Positions 3,855 through 12,152 of a stretch of 64,000 nt of DNA are shown piece by piece. Below the pieces are notes generated by a model. It was not told the DNA's origin, did not search any database, and was given only the letters and a program-made list of their open reading frames with translations. Made by a program: the position numbers and the translations under genes. The first letter of the stretch is position 1, and the number at the start of each line of letters is the position of its first letter. This stretch comes from Shigella phage ESh28. Location of the stretch: the sequence record ON528738. One strand, 5' to 3'.

Positions 3855-4483
3855 AGCCTACTATTTTGACTGATATTGACGGGGTGTGTTTAAGCTGGCA
3901 ATCGGGCCTTCCTTATTTTGCCCAAAAATATAATCTTCCGTTGGAACATATTTTAAAAATGATTCAGGACGAAAAATTTATTTCTCCTGGTAAGCTCTTT
4001 AATTGCGATGAAGAACTTGGTGTTAAATTAATCGAAAAGTATAATCGTTCAGATTTTATTCGTTATTTGTCTCCATATAAAGATGCTCTATGTGTAATTA
4101 ACAAATTAAAAGAAGATTATAATTTTGTAGCTGTTACAGCATTGGGTGATTCTATTGACGCTCTGCTGAATCGTCAATTTAATTTGAATGCTCTTTTTCC
4201 TGGTGCCTTCTCAGAAGTATTGATGTGTGGTCATGATTCTTCAAAAGAAGAGTTGTTCAAAAAGGCAAAAGAGAAATATAACGTAATTTGTTATATTGAC
4301 GATCTCGCTCACCACTGCGATCACGCGAGTGAAATATTAAATGTTCCTGTTTATTGGATGGCTCGAGGAGAGCGTGACAATATTCCAAAAACTGCGCAGC
4401 GAGTTTATACATGGAATGATGTAGAGAATAAGCTTTTCCATCGAAGGAAAATAAAGAAAGTTTTGATAGTGAAAAAGTTATAA
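3851..4483 (+). CDS. HAD-superfamily phosphatase (5'-nucleotidase-like)
   Basis: N-terminal ILTDIDGV (DxDGV motif I), downstream VTALGDS and YIDD motifs; 210 aa; ATGA overlap with upstream gene. Confidence 0.6.
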   Translation: MKPTILTDIDGVCLSWQSGLPYFAQKYNLPLEHILKMIQDEKFISPGKLFNCDEELGVKLIEKYNRSDFIRYLSPYKDALCVINKLKEDYNFVAVTALGDSIDALLNRQFNLNALFPGAFSEVLMCGHDSSKEELFKKAKEKYNVICYIDDLAHHCDHASEILNVPVYWMARGERDNIPKTAQRVYTWNDVENKLFHRRKIKKVLIVKKL

Positions 4484-4500
4484 AAGATGTAATTGAGAAG

Positions 4501-4686
4501 ATGATTAAAAACGATTCTTTTCCTTGGAACACTACCTGGAGAACTCCTGGATTTAATCCTTATAATCTATATCATCCATATCAGACGCATCCGTTTCAGA
4601 CATGGAACTATATTAAACCCGGTGGCATAGAGTATTTGTATAATAGACCTACTAGTGGTGATAATATTTTCCAAGGAGCATTCTAA
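4501..4686 (+). CDS. hypothetical small protein
   Basis: 61-aa ATG ORF, SD GAGAAG. Confidence 0.35.
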   Translation: MIKNDSFPWNTTWRTPGFNPYNLYHPYQTHPFQTWNYIKPGGIEYLYNRPTSGDNIFQGAF

Positions 4687-4955
4687 TGTTTGTCGTTCAC
4701 ACTATTTATGAAAATGAAGGTAATACTACACGTGATTACGGTCACGTAAATCAATTTTTTAGATGCAATCCAGAATTTCGAGCTCAAAAAGACGAACGAA
4801 TTTTTAAAAAATGTGTAGAGCAAGGTTTCATTTACGTCAAGCACTGGATGCAAGGAAATAAAGTTAGAACCACGTACCACAAGTCTTTGACTGAGCTTAA
4901 TGATGAATTGATTTATAATAGAGCTGTAAACCAAACTCTAAAGGATGAACAATGA
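4686..4955 (+). CDS. hypothetical protein (30.1-like)
   Basis: 89-aa ATG ORF, coupled to gene 30 start. Confidence 0.45.
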   Translation: MFVVHTIYENEGNTTRDYGHVNQFFRCNPEFRAQKDERIFKKCVEQGFIYVKHWMQGNKVRTTYHKSLTELNDELIYNRAVNQTLKDEQ

Positions 4956-6415
4956 TTCTTAAAATTCTGAACGAAATAGCATCTATTGGTTCAACTAAGC
5001 AGAAGCAAGCAATTCTTGAAAAGAATAAAGATAATGAATTGCTTAAACGAGTATATCGTCTGACTTATTCTCGTGGGTTACAGTATTATATCAAGAAATG
5101 GCCTAAACCTGGTATTGCTACCCAGAGTTTTGGAATGTTGACTCTTACCGATATGCTTGACTTCATTGAATTCACGTTAGCTACTCGGAAATTGACCGGA
5201 AATGCGGCAATTGAGGAATTAACTGGATATATTGCTGACGGTAAAAAAGATGATGTTGAAGTTTTGCGTCGGGTGATGATGCGAGACCTTGAATGCGGTG
5301 CTTCAGTATCTATTGCAAACAAAGTTTGGCCAGGTTTAATTCCTGAACAACCTCAAATGCTGGCAAGTTCTTATGATGAAAAAGGCATTAATAAGAATAT
5401 CAAATTTCCAGCATTTGCCCAATTAAAAGCTGATGGAGCTCGATGCTTTGCTGAAGTCAGAGGTGATGAATTAGATGATGTTCGTCTTTTATCACGAGCT
5501 GGTAATGAATATCTAGGATTAGATCTTCTCAAGGAAGAGTTAATCAAAATGACTGCAGAAGCTCGCCAGATTCATCCAGAAGGTGTGTTAATTGATGGCG
5601 AATTGGTATACCATGAGCAAGTTGAAAAGGAACCAGAAGGCCTAGATTTTCTTTTTGATGCTTATCCTGAAATTAGTAAAGCTAAAGAATTCGCCGAAGT
5701 AGCTGAATCACGTACTACTTCTAATGGAATCGCTAATAAATCTTTAAAGGGAACCATTTCCGAAAAAGAAGCACAATGCATGAAGTTTCAGGTCTGGGAC
5801 TATGTTCCATTAGTAGAAATATATGGTCTTCCAGCATTTCGTTTAAAATATGATGTACGTTTTTCTAAACTAGAACAAATGACATCAGGCTATGATAAAG
5901 TAATTTTAATTGAAAACCAGGTAGTAAATAACCTAGATGAAGCTAAGGTAATTTATAAAAAGTATATTGACCAAGGTCTTGAAGGTATTATTCTCAAAAA
6001 TATCGATGGATTATGGGAAAATGCTCGTTCAAAAAATCTTTATAAATTTAAAGAAGTAATTGATGTTGATTTAAAAATTGTAGGAATTTATCCTCACCGT
6101 AAAGACCCTACTAAAGCGGGTGGATTTATTCTTGAGTCAGAGTGTGGAAAAATTAAAGTAAATGCTGGTTCAGGCTTAAAAGATAAAGCTGGTGTAAAAT
6201 CGCATGAACTTGACCGTACTCGCATTATGGAAAACCAAAATTATTATATTGGAAAAATTCTAGAGTGCGAATGCAACGGTTGGTTAAAATCTGATGGCCG
6301 CACTGATTACGTTAAATTATTTCTTCCGATTGCGATTCGTTTACGTGAAGATAAAACTAAAGCTAATACATTCGAGGATGTATTTGGCGATTTTCATGAG
6401 GTAACTGGTTTATGA
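4952..6415 (+). CDS. 30: ATP-dependent DNA ligase gp30
   Basis: 487-aa ORF MILKILNEIASIGSTKQKQAILEKN..., matches recalled T4 DNA ligase sequence and length. Confidence 0.95.
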   Translation: MILKILNEIASIGSTKQKQAILEKNKDNELLKRVYRLTYSRGLQYYIKKWPKPGIATQSFGMLTLTDMLDFIEFTLATRKLTGNAAIEELTGYIADGKKDDVEVLRRVMMRDLECGASVSIANKVWPGLIPEQPQMLASSYDEKGINKNIKFPAFAQLKADGARCFAEVRGDELDDVRLLSRAGNEYLGLDLLKEELIKMTAEARQIHPEGVLIDGELVYHEQVEKEPEGLDFLFDAYPEISKAKEFAEVAESRTTSNGIANKSLKGTISEKEAQCMKFQVWDYVPLVEIYGLPAFRLKYDVRFSKLEQMTSGYDKVILIENQVVNNLDEAKVIYKKYIDQGLEGIILKNIDGLWENARSKNLYKFKEVIDVDLKIVGIYPHRKDPTKAGGFILESECGKIKVNAGSGLKDKAGVKSHELDRTRIMENQNYYIGKILECECNGWLKSDGRTDYVKLFLPIAIRLREDKTKANTFEDVFGDFHEVTGL

Positions 6416-6600
6416 AAGCTTACTTAGAAACAATTGTCATTGCTCAAAAAGAAGGTGGAGATGTTTCTACTTCTGTATCACAAGTCATTCTCGAATTTGT
6501 AGATGCATATGCTTACAATAAATTTACAGAAACATTTGATGCCTATGAAAAAGGTCCAAAGTTTGAAATATACCGTACTCTCTTACCACTAGATTACTAA
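6412..6600 (+). CDS. hypothetical small protein
   Basis: 62-aa ORF, ATGA overlap with ligase stop, SD GAGGT. Confidence 0.45.
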   Translation: MKAYLETIVIAQKEGGDVSTSVSQVILEFVDAYAYNKFTETFDAYEKGPKFEIYRTLLPLDY

Positions 6601-6624
6601 AGGCCTTCGGGCCTTTAATTTTAT
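6600..6624 (+). terminator. hairpin AAGGCC-TTCG-GGCCTT + T-rich tail
   Basis: GC stem with UUCG loop followed by TTAATTTTA. Confidence 0.5.
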
Positions 6625-6629
6625 AAATA
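6622..6629 (+). promoter_or_regulatory. late promoter TATAAATA upstream of alt
   Basis: exact TATAAATA about 24 nt before alt start. Confidence 0.7.
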
Positions 6630-6652
6630 GAATAAACACTAGAGAGGATATG

Positions 6653-8746
6653 ATGGAACTCATTACAGAATTATTTGACGAAGATACTACTCTTCCGATT
6701 ACAAACTTAAATCCAAAGAAGAAAATACCACAAATTTTTTCAGTTCATGTTGATGACGCAATTGAACAACCAGGCTTTCGTTTATGTACCTATACATCTG
6801 GAGGTGATACTAATCGCGATTTAAAGATGGGCGATAAAATGATGCATATTGTTCCTTTTACATTAACTGCTAAAGGTTCAATTGCTAAATTAAAAGGTCT
6901 TGGTCCAAGCCCAATTAATTATATCAATTCAGTTTTTACTGTTGCAATGCAAACAATGCGCCAGTATAAAATTGATGCTTGTATGCTTCGTATTCTTAAG
7001 TCTAAAACTGCTGGCCAAGCTCGACAAATTCAAGTTATTGCTGATAGACTTATCCGTAGTCGTTCAGGTGGCAGATACGTCCTTCTTAAGGAACTCTGGG
7101 ATTATGATAAAAAGTATGCATATATTCTTATACATCGCAAAAATGTATCACTAGAAGACATTCCAGGAGTTCCGGAAATTAGTACCGAGCTCTTTACTAA
7201 AGTTGAATCGAAGGTCGGTGATGTTTATATCAATAAAGATACTGGGGCTCAAGTAACTAAAAATGAGGCAATTGCAGCATCTATTGCACAAGAAAATGAT
7301 AAACGTTCTGACCAAGCTGTAATCGTTAAAGTTAAAATTTCACGTAGAGCAATTGCGCAAAGTCAATCATTGGAATCTTCTAGATTTGAAAGTGAATTAT
7401 TCCAGAAGTATGAATCTACCGCAGCTAATTTCAATAAACCTGCTACAGCTCCTTTAATTCCTGAAGCAGAAGAAATGAAGCTTGGAATTAATTCATTAGC
7501 TTCTAAAACTAAGGCAGCAAAAATTATTGCTGAAGGAACTGCAGATGAACTTCATTATGACTATAAATTCTTTTCAAAAAGTGAGGTTAATGAAGTTTCT
7601 GAAAAAATTAAAGATGTAATTCTTAATGCGATTAAAAATGAACCAACTACTTCAATAAAATGTTTAGAGAAATACGCAGCAGCTGTTAATCAATTATTTG
7701 AAGAATATAAAGATAACTGGCTTGATAAACATAATAAAACTCGTAAAGGACAGACAGATGAAGTCTGGGAAGAAATAACTAAAAATTCCTGGAACGCAGC
7801 AAAAACTAAATTCCTCAAACGAATGATTTATAGCTTTTCTGGAATTGGTGCAGGTCCAATGATTGATATTACTATTGCCCGTGATGGTTCTAAATATACT
7901 CCATCACAAAAGCGCGGCATTAGAGAGTATTGTGGTTCAGGATATACTGACATCAATAATCTTCTTTTAGGACGCTACAATCCAGAACGATATGATGTAA
8001 TGAGTGAAAAAGAAATTGAATCTGCTATAAATAACTTAGATTCAGCTTTTGAAAATGGTGACCGTATACCAGAAGGCATTACAGTTTATCGTGCTCAAAG
8101 TATGACTGCTCCTATATATGAAGCGTTAGTTAAAAATAAAGTGTTCTACTTCAGAAATTTTGTATCTACTTCTTTAACTCCTATCATTTTTGGACGTTTT
8201 GGAATCACACATGCTGGTATTGGTCTTTTAGAACCAGAAGCTCGCAATGAATTAACAGTTGATAAAAATGAAGAAGGAATAACTATTAATCCAAACGAAA
8301 TAAGAGCGTATAAAGAAAATCCTGAATACGTTAAAGTTCAAATAGGATGGGCAATTGATGGAGCTCATAAAGTTAATGTTGTATATCCAGGAAGTCTCGG
8401 AATAGCAACAGAAGCTGAAGTTATTCTACCGCGTGGATTGATGGTCAAAGTTAATAAAATAACTGATGCTTCTAATAATGACGGAACAACATCTAATAAT
8501 ACAAAACTCATTCAAGCTGAAGTTATGACCACGGAAGAGCTCACCGAATCGGTAATCTATGACGGAGACCATTTAATGGAAACCGGTGAAGTAGTTGCAA
8601 TGACAGGTGATATTGAAATAGACGACAGAGTTGACTTTGCATCATTTGTTTCATCAAATGTTAAACAGAAAGTAGAATCATCTCTTGGAATTATTGCGTC
8701 TTGCATAGATATTACAAACATGCCTTACAAGTTCGTTCAAGGATAA
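6653..8746 (+). CDS. alt: Alt ADP-ribosyltransferase (capsid-packaged), copy 1
   Basis: MELITELFDEDTTLPITNL... matches recalled T4 Alt; YRAQ / FVSTSL / EAEVILPRG (R-S-ExE ART motifs); ATG 6650 also possible. Confidence 0.9.
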   Translation: MELITELFDEDTTLPITNLNPKKKIPQIFSVHVDDAIEQPGFRLCTYTSGGDTNRDLKMGDKMMHIVPFTLTAKGSIAKLKGLGPSPINYINSVFTVAMQTMRQYKIDACMLRILKSKTAGQARQIQVIADRLIRSRSGGRYVLLKELWDYDKKYAYILIHRKNVSLEDIPGVPEISTELFTKVESKVGDVYINKDTGAQVTKNEAIAASIAQENDKRSDQAVIVKVKISRRAIAQSQSLESSRFESELFQKYESTAANFNKPATAPLIPEAEEMKLGINSLASKTKAAKIIAEGTADELHYDYKFFSKSEVNEVSEKIKDVILNAIKNEPTTSIKCLEKYAAAVNQLFEEYKDNWLDKHNKTRKGQTDEVWEEITKNSWNAAKTKFLKRMIYSFSGIGAGPMIDITIARDGSKYTPSQKRGIREYCGSGYTDINNLLLGRYNPERYDVMSEKEIESAINNLDSAFENGDRIPEGITVYRAQSMTAPIYEALVKNKVFYFRNFVSTSLTPIIFGRFGITHAGIGLLEPEARNELTVDKNEEGITINPNEIRAYKENPEYVKVQIGWAIDGAHKVNVVYPGSLGIATEAEVILPRGLMVKVNKITDASNNDGTTSNNTKLIQAEVMTTEELTESVIYDGDHLMETGEVVAMTGDIEIDDRVDFASFVSSNVKQKVESSLGIIASCIDITNMPYKFVQG

Positions 8747-8749
8747 ATC

Positions 8750-10807
8750 ATGGAACTTATTACAGAATTATTTGACGGCGCTTCGGCGCCGGTTGTTAAC
8801 TTAAATCCTAAGCATAAAATACCACAAATTTTTGCTATTCAAGCCGGTGAAGAAAGCGTTCTTCCTGGATTTAGATTTTGTACATACACCTCTGGCGGTG
8901 ATACGAATAAAAACGTTAAGCCAGGCGACAAAATGATGCATATCGTAATGATAGGTGTTAATGAAAAATTATCATTAGTTAAGCTTAAAAACTTGGGTGG
9001 AAATCCAATTGGCGTCATTAATGCTGTTTTTGATACTGCTCTTCAAACAATGAAACAGTATAAAATTGATGCATGCCTATTCCGCGTACTAAAAAGTAAA
9101 ACAAATGGCGCTGCTCGTCAAATGCAAGTTATTGCTGACCGTTTAGTACGTACTAAAGGAGCAGGTCGATATGTTCTTTTAAAGGAAATCTGGGACTATG
9201 ATAAGAAATATGCATATATTATGGTTTACCGTAAAAATGCCAATTTAGAAGACATTCCAGGTGTACCTCCTATTTCAACTGAGTTATTCACAAAAGTTGA
9301 ATCGAAAGTCGGTGATGTTTATGTAGATGTTAAAACAGGTAATGCTGTTCCTAAAGCTGTTGCTGTTGCTGCTTCTATTGCTTTAGAAAATGATAAGCGC
9401 ACGGACCAAGCTGTTATTCAGAAAACTAAAATTAGTCGTCGATTAGCAGCACAAGCTCAATATTCTACTGTTGATGCTTCACTTCAGGGTGATAGCTTCG
9501 CTGCTAAGAAATATCAAGAGTTTGAATCTAAAGTTCCGGTGTATAAAGCAGAAGGACCAATGAACTCTGGCGTTATTCAAATTGGTTCAAACTTCAGCAA
9601 AGGAGCTATAGGCGGTATGAGAAGCGCTTCTCGTTTTAAATCTAGTGATTATGAACTCGAAAGCTTCCGAAATCATATTGCATTAGCCCATGCACGTTTA
9701 CGTGATCCATCTATCAAGTTACAGAGCGATATAACATATCAAGGTTCTCAAGAATATTTAAAGAATAAAGAATTCTTTGATTATAAGACTGATAAAATTT
9801 TAAGCGATCTTGCTGATATTAATATTTCTAATAGCTTTGATGTTATTAAGAAAATTATCAATGATTTGGTTAAAGGTTCTAAAGCTACGCCAGATGAAAA
9901 GACAGCTATTATTCAATTTGTCATGAATGGCATTTATAAATTGATTAATGAATCTGCTGCTCAGGCATATGAATACGCAAGCACTGAAGTAACTCCAAAA
10001 GGATTAACTCAAGCTGAATCTGATGTAATTGAAGATTATTGTGCAGATTCATATGTTGAAATGAACTCGTTCCTTTTGGGTAAACCAGATTCTACCCGTG
10101 AAGAATATATGGAACGAGCTATTAAACATATTGAGACGCTTGATTCTGCATTCGCTAAAGGTTCAGTTCTTCCTCCAGGAACTACACTTTACCGTGGACA
10201 AGAAGTTACCTTTAAAACTTTGCGTCATAACATTGAAAATAAAATGTTCTATTTCAAGAACTTCGTATCGACATCACTTAAACCAAATATATTCGGTGAG
10301 CATGGTAAAAACTATATGGCTCTAGATGATTCCGGCGCAGTATTTTCTGGCGAAGGAGAAGGTTCTGTTGATGCAGAAGATTTGATGCATATGGGTAGTC
10401 ATTCTACATATGCTAATGAAGATGCTGAAACTAGCGTGGGTATGGTAATTAAAGGAGCTGAGCGAATTAAAGTTATCGTTCCGGGTCATTTATCAGGATT
10501 TCCATCAGAAGCTGAAGTTATTCTACCGCGTGGAATTTTACTGAAGATTAATAAAGTAAGTACTTACTTTATGAAAGAAACTGCTTATAACAAGTATCTA
10601 ATCGAAGGTACAATCGTTCCTCCTTCTGAACAATTAGAGGAATCAGTATATGATGGCGACCATCTAATGGAAACTGGTGAAGTTCGTCCAATGACTGGAT
10701 TTAATCAATTCCTTGTCGAAGAATCAAAAGAAGAGGAAAACGAAGTTTCTCAAATCTTAGCTTCTTTGGTTAACATTAACGGAATGTCTAAAAAGTTCAA
10801 AATGTAG
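8750..10807 (+). CDS. Alt-like ADP-ribosyltransferase paralog, copy 2
   Basis: 685 aa; N-terminus MELITELFDG and C-terminal ART core (YRGQ, FVSTSL, EAEVILPRG, YDGDHLMETGEV) conserved with copy 1, central region divergent. Confidence 0.85.
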   Translation: MELITELFDGASAPVVNLNPKHKIPQIFAIQAGEESVLPGFRFCTYTSGGDTNKNVKPGDKMMHIVMIGVNEKLSLVKLKNLGGNPIGVINAVFDTALQTMKQYKIDACLFRVLKSKTNGAARQMQVIADRLVRTKGAGRYVLLKEIWDYDKKYAYIMVYRKNANLEDIPGVPPISTELFTKVESKVGDVYVDVKTGNAVPKAVAVAASIALENDKRTDQAVIQKTKISRRLAAQAQYSTVDASLQGDSFAAKKYQEFESKVPVYKAEGPMNSGVIQIGSNFSKGAIGGMRSASRFKSSDYELESFRNHIALAHARLRDPSIKLQSDITYQGSQEYLKNKEFFDYKTDKILSDLADINISNSFDVIKKIINDLVKGSKATPDEKTAIIQFVMNGIYKLINESAAQAYEYASTEVTPKGLTQAESDVIEDYCADSYVEMNSFLLGKPDSTREEYMERAIKHIETLDSAFAKGSVLPPGTTLYRGQEVTFKTLRHNIENKMFYFKNFVSTSLKPNIFGEHGKNYMALDDSGAVFSGEGEGSVDAEDLMHMGSHSTYANEDAETSVGMVIKGAERIKVIVPGHLSGFPSEAEVILPRGILLKINKVSTYFMKETAYNKYLIEGTIVPPSEQLEESVYDGDHLMETGEVRPMTGFNQFLVEESKEEENEVSQILASLVNINGMSKKFKM

Positions 10808-10836
10808 TTTACAAGTCCCTCATGTTGTGTTATAGT
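10807..10836 (+). promoter_or_regulatory. early-type promoter (-35 GTTTAC, extended -10 TGtTATAGT)
   Basis: GTTTAC 10807-10812, TATAGT 10831-10836. Confidence 0.55.
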
Positions 10837-10867
10837 AGTCTTACTGACATAACATGAGGAACACAAA

Positions 10868-11158
10868 ATGAAATCTTCTTTGCGCTTTTTAGGTCAAGAA
10901 CTCGTCGTTGAAGGCGTTATTCCCGCTGATAACGCTTTCAATGAAGCAGTTTACGATGAATTTATCAAAATTTTTGGAACAGATAAAAAGTTCGGAATTT
11001 TTCCTTCTGAAAATTTTTCAAAGCCAGAACAGACTGAAAGTATTTTTCAGGGTGTAGTAACAGGTAAATTTGAGTCAGAAGCTCCGGTAAAAATTGAGGT
11101 TTATATTGAAGAAACCTCTGTTGCTTCAGTTGCTGCTTTTATTTCATTCCGTAAATAA
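10868..11158 (+). CDS. hypothetical protein
   Basis: 96-aa ATG ORF, SD GAGGA. Confidence 0.5.
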   Translation: MKSSLRFLGQELVVEGVIPADNAFNEAVYDEFIKIFGTDKKFGIFPSENFSKPEQTESIFQGVVTGKFESEAPVKIEVYIEETSVASVAAFISFRK

Positions 11159-11195
11159 AAACATGGGGACCTTTCGGTCCCCATTGTTATATTGC
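11150..11195. terminator. bidirectional terminator (ATGGGGACC-TTTC-GGTCCCCAT with T-rich flanks on both strands)
   Basis: 9-bp stem at 11163-11184 between convergent ORFs (10868..11158 + and gene 54 -). Confidence 0.7.
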
Positions 11196-12152
11196 TCCTA
11201 ATATTTTACTTTGCGAGTTGACAATTCCTGTCATAGTATTAATATTTGAAATGCTTCCTGCAGTTCCCCCTAATCTACTAAGTCGTGAAAGCGAATTAGA
11301 TAGTCCAGTAACACCTCCACTATTTCCGAGAACGCTTTGAATACCATTTATAGTAGCAGATTCAAGCCATTCAAGGGCAGCTTGTCTATCAACTGCTCCA
11401 GCCTGCATGACTCTATAAGCGAAAGTAACATCAAATGTAGTTATTTGGTTATCTCCATCATATGATAACTCAGGAGCACTCACAGATATTGGAATACAGC
11501 CAGTGAACATCACCGCAGTATGTGGTAATCCATTGCGAGAATGAAGATTAACCTGAATATCTGCCTCGACATCTTGTGGTAAAGCACGCAATCCAGTTAC
11601 TGGGTCTTGAACAGCGTTAACCCAGTCTTGCATTGCACGATAGTTACAAGCTTCTGAATCCATTCTAAATGAAATAACCAAAGGGTCTAATTCTCTCCCA
11701 GTTATACGAATATTAGGAGAGTTGTAGTTCCAGTCAGTTTCATAGGATAATCTATTCTCTGGCATTTTTACAGAGTATATCATCAATCCAGATGAGTTAT
11801 ATGCCATGTTAAAGAAGTCAATTAAATATGTACCAACTGTAAATGAGCCTAATAAACTTTGAACTGTACGTTGACTCATGGCACCAATAAGATATTTACT
11901 AACCCCTGATTTTCTTATCAGTTTTTGTGTGCCAGCTGTAATTAGCGTGGTAATTCCCTGATTAATATCACCTTGAGTTAATCCTAGCCAATCTGAACTT
12001 AGGCCCAAGTTATTATAAGAAAAGTTGCTAATTGAACTTATCAACGAAGAGCTTTTAGTTGATGGAGTTGTTGCAAAAACGCAGCTAAACATATTATTAC
12101 GTTGGAAATCTGCGTTTATTGCTTGATTATTAAATTCCTCTAAAGAATACAT
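11187..12152 (-). CDS. 54: baseplate tail tube initiator gp54
   Basis: 321-aa ORF, length and gene order as T4 gene 54; ATG verified. Confidence 0.8.
   Translation of the reverse strand: MYSLEEFNNQAINADFQRNNMFSCVFATTPSTKSSSLISSISNFSYNNLGLSSDWLGLTQGDINQGITTLITAGTQKLIRKSGVSKYLIGAMSQRTVQSLLGSFTVGTYLIDFFNMAYNSSGLMIYSVKMPENRLSYETDWNYNSPNIRITGRELDPLVISFRMDSEACNYRAMQDWVNAVQDPVTGLRALPQDVEADIQVNLHSRNGLPHTAVMFTGCIPISVSAPELSYDGDNQITTFDVTFAYRVMQAGAVDRQAALEWLESATINGIQSVLGNSGGVTGLSNSLSRLSRLGGTAGSISNINTMTGIVNSQSKILGAI

Follow-up and report, generated by a model that had tools for sequence, protein, structure and literature searches.

What is known of injected phage ADP-ribosyltransferases (ARTs) comes nearly all from bacteriophage T4, which represents a minority and reduced state of the locus concerned. 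T4 Alt (gpAlt, NP_049811) is a packaged and injected arginine mono-ADP-ribosyltransferase. It is a protein of the prohead core, present in about 40 copies per head, and is injected together with the DNA (PMC9958956, PMC9026906). Cleavage by the gp21 protease after ITE-6 and LTE-619 takes 6 residues from its N-terminus and 63 from its C-terminus and leaves a mature protein of 68.2 kDa (PMC5694885); the enzyme modifies host proteins including RNA polymerase alpha at Arg265, MazF and others (PMC8120803). Its activity is abolished by the substitution E577A in the second glutamate of the ExE motif (PMC11404850); the same residue is counted as E576 in NP_049811. Here, we analyze a stretch of 64,000 nucleotides (nt) from Shigella phage ESh28 (sequence record ON528738; hereafter the window), a genome segment of a T4-like (Tequatrovirus) phage in which the alt slot is occupied by two adjacent genes of the Alt family, encoding 697 amino acids (aa; copy 1) and 685 aa (copy 2).

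The locus is probably the ancestral Tequatrovirus alt cluster, made up of alt and a full-length alt.-2, and would encode two packaged, injected, arginine-specific ARTs with different substrate ranges. As a finding from a genome scan the gene pair is ordinary: it is already known and annotated, and most T-even phages, among them T2 and RB32, normally have it. Of moderate interest is what the second paralogue does biochemically, as most T-even phages encode it in a strongly conserved form, and no substrates of it were found reported in the open-access literature. If copy 2 is packaged and has targets of its own, the T4-derived picture of immediate-early host takeover would be incomplete, and differences in host range or defence evasion between T2-/T6-like phages and T4 could partly map to the alt locus.

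Two Alt paralogues with intact catalytic residues

The coordinates in the list of open reading frames (ORFs) agree with the original prediction, made from the sequence of the window, that two adjacent and intact Alt-family genes are present. The two proteins are 42% identical over their full length (BLASTP, E = 2e-160), a likeness far above chance, with 68% identity in the N-terminal domain (aa 1-235), 18% in the centre (aa 236-415), 36% in the ART domain and 48% in the C-terminal tail. The least conserved part of the ART domain is the segment from STS to ExE, in which identity between the copies is 3-30%. The divergent centre that had been noticed is therefore confirmed at 18% identity, and the substrate-facing part of the ART domain is also strongly diverged. 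The motifs from which a shared N-terminal module and a shared ART core had been read (MELITELFD, PGFRxCTYTSGGDTN, KMMHIV, YRxQ, FVSTSL, EAEVILPRG and YDGDHLMETGEV) are present in both copies. One of them had been misplaced: YDGDHLMETGEV (YDGDHLMETGE) belongs not to the ART core but to the C-terminal propeptide of both copies, downstream of the site homologous to T4 LTE-619, in a region that is removed in T4. This motif contains a further LME, which fits the gp21 consensus. No long gene-conversion tracts were seen between the window copies, in which the longest exact common tract, located in the ExE region, measures 29 nt.

The catalytic residues are R480, S505-T-S and E587-A-E589 in copy 1, and R482, S507-T-S and E587-A-E589 in copy 2. 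When the two copies are aligned with T4 Alt, ModA and ModB, exactly the R, S, E and E catalytic columns are invariant among the five proteins, in agreement with the catalytic residues of ModA (R72, S109 and E165; PMC8120803) and with the E577A substitution that inactivates T4 Alt. The alignment thus upholds the claim that both copies keep the R-S-ExE residues. Pfam PF03496 (ADPrib_exo_Tox) matches copy 1 at 1.5e-37 and copy 2 at 5.8e-20, and PHROG 802, "Alt-like RNA polymerase ADP-ribosyltransferase", matches them end to end at 9e-273 and 6e-257, respectively; the same label is given by RefSeq to both genes in many genomes. The N-terminal domain is the Pfam domain Tevenvirinae_ADPRT, and PF26846 and PF03496 both appear in the precomputed domain list for the closest database proteins of copy 2 (97-99% identical) and for the hybrids described below. 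A local Pfam search on the isolated N-domains and centres gave nothing above noise, and no NCBIfam model matches copy 1, copy 2 or T4 Alt.

An AlphaFold model of copy 2 (23 sequences), with a mean pLDDT (predicted local distance difference test score) of 76.6, comprises an N-domain of mixed alpha/beta structure (about aa 1-225), a centre made entirely of helices (230-415), the ART domain (420-625) and a disordered C-terminus. Foldseek matched the ART domain of this model to Vis, C3bot, CDTa, iota, VIP2 and Certhrax at E values of 5e-8 to 1e-5. Searched by sequence against the PDB, copy 2 returned nothing at E <= 0.01, and copy 1 returned weak partial matches to CDTa and iota toxin only; no solved structure of Alt was found in these searches.

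Motifs of the gp21 type, [LI]xE, are located at homologous positions in the two proteins, ITE-6 and LTE-632 in copy 1 and ITE-6 and LEE-631 in copy 2. Cleavage at these sites is predicted to give mature proteins of 70.1 kDa (copy 1) and 69.1 kDa (copy 2); the mature mass computed for T4 Alt, 68.2 kDa, reproduces the published value. In both copies the N-domain is basic (isoelectric point 9.4-9.6) and the C-propeptide acidic (isoelectric point 4.1-4.6).

Loss and exchange at the alt locus

In T4 (NC_000866), the slot occupied by the pair contains alt (682 aa), alt.-1 (61 aa), alt.-2 (67 aa) and alt.-3. RB32 is annotated with alt followed by a full-length alt.-2 "similar to alt", and T2 carries the same pair of 697 and 685 aa. 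Because the RB32 annotation, the T2 pair and the T4 slot agree, copy 1, the positional orthologue of T4 alt, is identified by homology and position as alt, and copy 2 as full-length alt.-2. The original prediction had regarded the pair as a duplication that distinguishes this phage from a single-alt T4. Copy 2 is instead essentially the known alt.-x ORF at the T4 position, already annotated at full length in RB32, and the direction of change has to be reversed, as T4 retains the first 348 nt of copy 2 and has lost most of the gene. It has been reported that alt.-1 and alt.-2 are paralogous duplications of alt and that a full-length duplicate exists in phage 44RR (Nolan et al., 2006, PMC1524935), and the T4 GenBank note says that they "reflect an old duplication of the first part of gene alt".

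The 348 nt kept in T4 alt.-1/alt.-2 (positions 2066-2451 of the T4 segment L001) are the first of copy 2, lie at the same position and show 96% DNA identity. The T4 DNA from the end of alt to alt.-3 aligns with the window in two blocks, 8701-9097 at 96% and 10788-11203 at 95%, and these blocks overlap by the 9 nt CTAAAAAGT. As this 9-mer is present at both ends of the corresponding interval in the window, and as the T4 junction retains one copy of it, the alignment indicates that 1699 bp of copy 2 were lost in T4 by deletion between short direct repeats. The split of the remnant into alt.-1 and alt.-2 is explained by a frameshift, a 1-nt deletion in an A-run around window position 8909. As read from these alignments, T4 alt.-1/alt.-2 is the deletion remnant of a complete paralogue, contrary to the GenBank view of a duplicated "first part", and the single alt of T4 is a derived loss rather than the ancestral state.

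The distribution of the genes among phages was surveyed with several queries. Many GenBank phages (FriedrichMiescher, wV7, RB3, RB32 and others) match a whole 4.8-kb stretch at 97-97.6% identity; 545 records matched in total, 336 of which cover at least 80% of the query. The centre/ART DNA of copy 2 was found in 401 phage records at 90% identity or more, T2 included, the central allele of the window-type copy 1 in 342, the central allele of the T4-type alt in 175, and the remnant junction of the T4 type in 91. The two-gene state is the majority, and T4 represents a minority, reduced state. A T4-type alt and a full copy 2 also occur together, for example in phage G9062. Across Straboviridae, 1201 records contain the Alt N-domain, at a total of 1819 places, and 376 phage records carry the 235-aa N-domain of copy 2 at 99% identity or more.

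Six phages were compared (the window, RB32, T2, SholemSchwarzbard, ADUt and KMB23), among which synonymous divergence reaches 0.35; in all of them each ORF is intact and keeps the same length. In pairwise comparisons, the ratio of nonsynonymous to synonymous divergence (dN/dS) ranges from 0.03 to 0.08 in copy 1 and from 0.01 to 0.05 in copy 2. When copy 2 is divided into its four segments, every value stays below 0.12; the maximum comes from the C-propeptide, a short segment with very few substitutions, and the remaining segments do not exceed 0.10, with 0.01-0.04 in the ART domain. Strong purifying selection acts on both proteins, and in copy 2 it extends to the poorly conserved centre. Since each copy is tightly conserved (dN/dS 0.01-0.08), the divergence between them is old, and the diversification that had been ascribed to the pair finds no support within the lineage.

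Divergence from T4 within alt itself is sharply confined. At the DNA level, copy 1 and T4 alt show 95-100% identity in nt 1-720; from nt 1861 onward identity is again mostly 95-100%, dropping to 80% in one 60-nt interval. The segment in between, nt 721-1860 (window 7373-8512), is only 27-80% identical and has sharp boundaries. In the protein, aa 1-240 of copy 1 and the part from aa 620 onward match T4 Alt at about 100% identity, and the neighbouring ligase gene and alt.1 are 96.3% identical to those of T4. A low-identity segment between such near-identical flanks looks like the result of an exchange of the centre-plus-ART module between conserved flanks. By sequence, at least three module types can be distinguished in Tequatrovirus: the T4-Alt type, the T2/window copy-1 type and the alt.-2 type.

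Hybrid genes give a further view of this exchange. Three database proteins (P0003, P0005 and P0007) combine the centre/ART part of copy 2 with a copy-1-like 5' part, and two metagenome contigs (a 110-kb MEGAHIT k99 contig and a 65-kb Logan contig) have the order ligase - alt.1 - single alt - alt.-3 - gp54. According to informative sites, the hybrid genes contain clean single crossovers around nt 135, 545 and 695, all in the N-terminal domain; in T2, the two copies have exact tracts in common at nt 547 (30 nt) and nt 639 (27 nt). The hybrids look as if the tandem N-domains had recombined unequally. For the k99 contig an assembly artefact is unlikely; it may apply to the Logan contigs. When complete genomes were searched for the single-hybrid architecture, the top matches were all two-copy genomes, the search having merged pieces of both copies into one place. 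The single hybrid genes keep the catalytic module of copy 2 alone, behind the 5' end of copy 1 and its late promoter. As only this module is retained in these natural single hybrids, they indicate that it can serve as the sole Alt enzyme of a phage.

Expression, delivery and substrate range

The terminator-like hairpin after alt.1 sets transcription of ligase and alt.1 apart from that of the alt genes (Table 1), and a terminator upstream of alt is kept in five of six T4-like genomes (Nolan et al., 2006, PMC1524935). Between this hairpin and copy 1 lies the sole late box directly upstream of either alt gene, TATAAATA, to which a promoter role may be assigned from what is known of T4; the window contains 23 matches to the late promoter box against 9.65 expected. 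Copy 1 has two adjacent in-frame ATGs at 6650-6655, which give 698 aa from 6650 or 697 aa from 6653. The second, which begins MELITE as in the T4 annotation, is the likelier start because the Shine-Dalgarno sequence GAGG is separated from it by 5 nt and from the first by 2 nt. The copy 1 stop codon TAA (8744-8746) is followed after a gap of 3 nt by the copy 2 ATG at 8750, and an intergenic scan found neither a promoter nor a terminator between the two genes, which suggests that the pair is expressed as one bicistronic late transcript. A second exact TATAAATA is located within copy 1 at 8026-8033, roughly 720 nt before copy 2 begins. This match may have arisen by chance, about 0.6 being expected per 4 kb, or may act as a late promoter of copy 2 from within copy 1.

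For copy 2 we infer co-transcription, packaging, cleavage, injection, activity, arginine specificity and different targets, in a pathway that can be outlined as follows. Both genes would be transcribed late from the single TATAAATA promoter as one message, and copy 2 would be translated from its own AGGA site, starting 3 nt past the copy 1 stop. Each product would consist of a basic N-domain, a helical centre, a C3/VIP2-like R-S-ExE ART domain and an acidic C-terminal propeptide. Both would be built into the prohead core like T4 Alt, and gp21 would trim both behind ITE-6 and, at the other end, copy 1 behind LTE-632 and copy 2 behind LEE-631, leaving mature enzymes of about 70 and 69 kDa. Injected along with the DNA, both enzymes would then use NAD+ to attach single ADP-ribose units to arginines of host proteins in the first seconds of infection, and the two would modify different, possibly overlapping, sets of host proteins. 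The ExE motif in the R-S-E clade predicts arginine specificity, and this specificity is expected here because both copies have that motif. Injection of copy 2 and different target specificities, as originally predicted, are plausible. Different substrate ranges of the two copies are our best guess from the sequence: different target sets are most likely because the centre and the STS-to-ExE insert are least conserved (3-30%) and the insert adjoins the substrate-recognition (ARTT) loop of ARTs.

Several points weigh against such a division of labor. Its loss from T4 and about 90 further records shows that copy 2 can be dispensed with, at least on laboratory hosts, and it lacks a late box of its own, so it would need read-through. 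T4 Alt is promiscuous, having at least 27 targets (PMC8120803), and substantial redundancy is therefore possible. The argument for different targets is drawn only from divergence, and AlphaFold confidence is only moderate in the STS-to-ExE insert of copy 2. No virion proteomics, biochemistry or functional report on copy 2 was found in the open-access full-text literature.

Other explanations of copy 2 have to be weighed against two injected enzymes with different substrate ranges. Copy 2 might be packaged and active on essentially the targets of copy 1 (RNA polymerase alpha Arg265 and others), providing dose or backup, which would agree with the same architecture, catalytic residues and cleavage motifs in both copies, with the promiscuity of T4 Alt and with the tolerance of T4-type phages to its loss. 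We regard this as rather unlikely: it fits poorly with identities of 36% in the ART domain and 18% in the centre when each copy is nevertheless under strong purifying selection, and with the fact that the STS-to-ExE segment is the least conserved. It is unlikely that copy 2 is an active but unpackaged enzyme which, instead of being injected, works at a late stage on proteins of the host or the phage within the cell that makes the phage. The position of copy 2 behind a late promoter suits this idea, as does the fact that the open-access literature yielded no virion data for it, but the MELITE propeptide, the whole N-domain (68% identical to that of copy 1), the C-terminal gp21 site and the propeptide are all conserved, and such conserved ends are hard to explain without head targeting and processing.

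That copy 2 is a catalytically dead structural protein of the core, or a decaying duplicate as in T4, is very improbable. T4 demonstrates that copy 2 can decay, and its Pfam score is weaker than that of copy 1; however, copy 2 retains the R-S-ExE residues, its model folds as an ART, the ORF is intact and of the same length in all six genomes, and dN/dS of the ART domain is 0.01-0.04. For this lineage, dN/dS and the intact catalytic residues lead us to reject the reading of copy 2 as a pseudogene, a decaying duplicate or a dead enzyme.

Beyond the two injected ARTs, it is possible, and we put it forward tentatively, that the alt locus is a modular injected-effector system, in which a head-targeting N-domain and a C-propeptide frame exchangeable centre-plus-ART modules of at least three types that are reshuffled, duplicated or deleted by phage recombination, and in which the alt.-2 module has a target set distinct from that of classical Alt, possibly an anti-defence one. 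MazF is cited as an anti-defence-type target of T4 Alt. If this modular reading is true, T4 is without an effector that most of its relatives inject.

The coordinates of the locus are collected in Table 1. On the + strand, the order is ligase gene 30, alt.1, the 697-aa ORF, the 685-aa ORF and alt.-3, and gp54 and gp48 come next on the - strand. The start of alt.1 overlaps the ligase stop codon by 4 nt, and alt.1 is kept in all alt-locus architectures examined. An early-type promoter-like site of alt.-3 is located at 10808-10836 (GTTTACA, 17 nt, TATAGT, with TG). In T4, alt.-3 is the CmdTAC escape locus, the escape mutations being C-terminal extensions of Alt.-3 (PMC11618068).

Table 1. Features of the alt locus in the window, and hybrid alt genes in other contigs (positions on the contig named).
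Feature	Position	Strand	Remark
DNA ligase gene 30	4952-6415	+	
alt.1, 62 aa	6412-6600	+	Pfam Phage_blade PF24647
Terminator-like hairpin AAAGGCCTTCGGGCCTTT	6598-6617	+	after alt.1
Putative T4-type late promoter box TATAAATA	6622-6629	+	24 nt before copy 1 start
Copy 1 Shine-Dalgarno GAGG	6644-6647	+	
Copy 1 (alt), 697 aa	6653-8746	+	ORF list, homology
Copy 1 N-domain	6653-7357		
Copy 1 centre	7358-7888		
Copy 1 ART domain	7889-8548		
Copy 1 C-terminal propeptide	8549-8743		
Copy 1 R480 codon	8090-8092		
Copy 1 STS codons	8165-8173		
Copy 1 ExE codons	8411-8419		
Copy 2 Shine-Dalgarno AGGA	8740-8743	+	within last codons of copy 1
Copy 2 (full-length alt.-2), 685 aa	8750-10807	+	
Copy 2 N-domain	8750-9454		
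Copy 2 helical centre	9455-9994		
Copy 2 ART domain	9995-10642		
Copy 2 C-terminal propeptide	10643-10804		
Copy 2 R482 codon	10193-10195		
Copy 2 STS codons	10268-10276		
Copy 2 ExE codons	10508-10516		
Left 9-nt direct repeat CTAAAAAGT	9089-9097	+	bounds 1699 bp missing in T4
Right 9-nt direct repeat CTAAAAAGT	10788-10796	+	
alt.-3, 96 aa, DUF5498	10868-11158	+	downstream neighbour, outside ART pair
Bidirectional terminator	11163-11184		after alt.-3
Hybrid alt, L009 (ENA ERZ27282683 k99_7153)	4001-6061		between alt.1 and alt.-3 in the 110-kb MEGAHIT k99 contig
Hybrid alt between alt.1 and alt.-3, L008 (65-kb contig, Logan SRR24155011)	5001-7055		
Hybrid alt, L007 (Logan SRR19633722)	5001-7061		7-kb contig ends just after gene

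Likeness to known ADP-ribosyltransferases

The arrangement of the locus resembles that of polymorphic toxins in having a conserved N-terminal module with sharply bounded, exchangeable C-terminal modules. A cognate immunity gene was not found; the neighbouring small ORFs are only alt.1 and alt.-3, which are conserved whatever the alt allele.

T4 Alt occupies the same slot (ligase - alt.1 - alt - alt.-3 - gp54) and has in common with the window copies the four-part architecture, the R-S-ExE residues, and the ITE-6 and C-terminal LxE motifs for gp21; a putative late promoter box precedes copy 1. Over its full length, T4 Alt is 70% identical to copy 1, which differs in the centre-plus-ART module, and shows 41% identity to copy 2 (E = 2e-158). 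Full-length homology including the N-terminal domain, R-S-ExE on an ART fold (in the model) and gp21 motifs at both ends place the window copies in the family of T4 Alt. The alt.-2 gene of RB32 and T2 has the same position and length (685 aa) as copy 2, from which it differs by a dN of 0.0025-0.0044, or about 99% amino-acid identity as estimated from dN. Compared with copy 2, T4 alt.-1/alt.-2 is without 1699 bp and carries a frameshift in addition.

The C3-like, VIP2/iota/CDTa and Vis toxins share the ART fold and the R / STS / ExE site with the window proteins, at 15-20% identity. The insert from STS to ExE is about 70 residues long in the window proteins, whereas toxins of the C3/VIP2/Vis type have about 40 residues between these motifs. 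Delivery also differs: by analogy with T4 Alt, the window proteins would enter via the phage head, whereas the toxins use secretion or the B component of a binary toxin. T4 ModA and ModB have the R-S-ExE residues in the same columns, and their identity to the window proteins, 17-19%, is confined to the catalytic columns. They are proteins of about 200 aa without N-domain or propeptides, are early and non-packaged, and belong to a different family; with 17-19% identity and another architecture, the window copies are not members of the ModA/ModB family.

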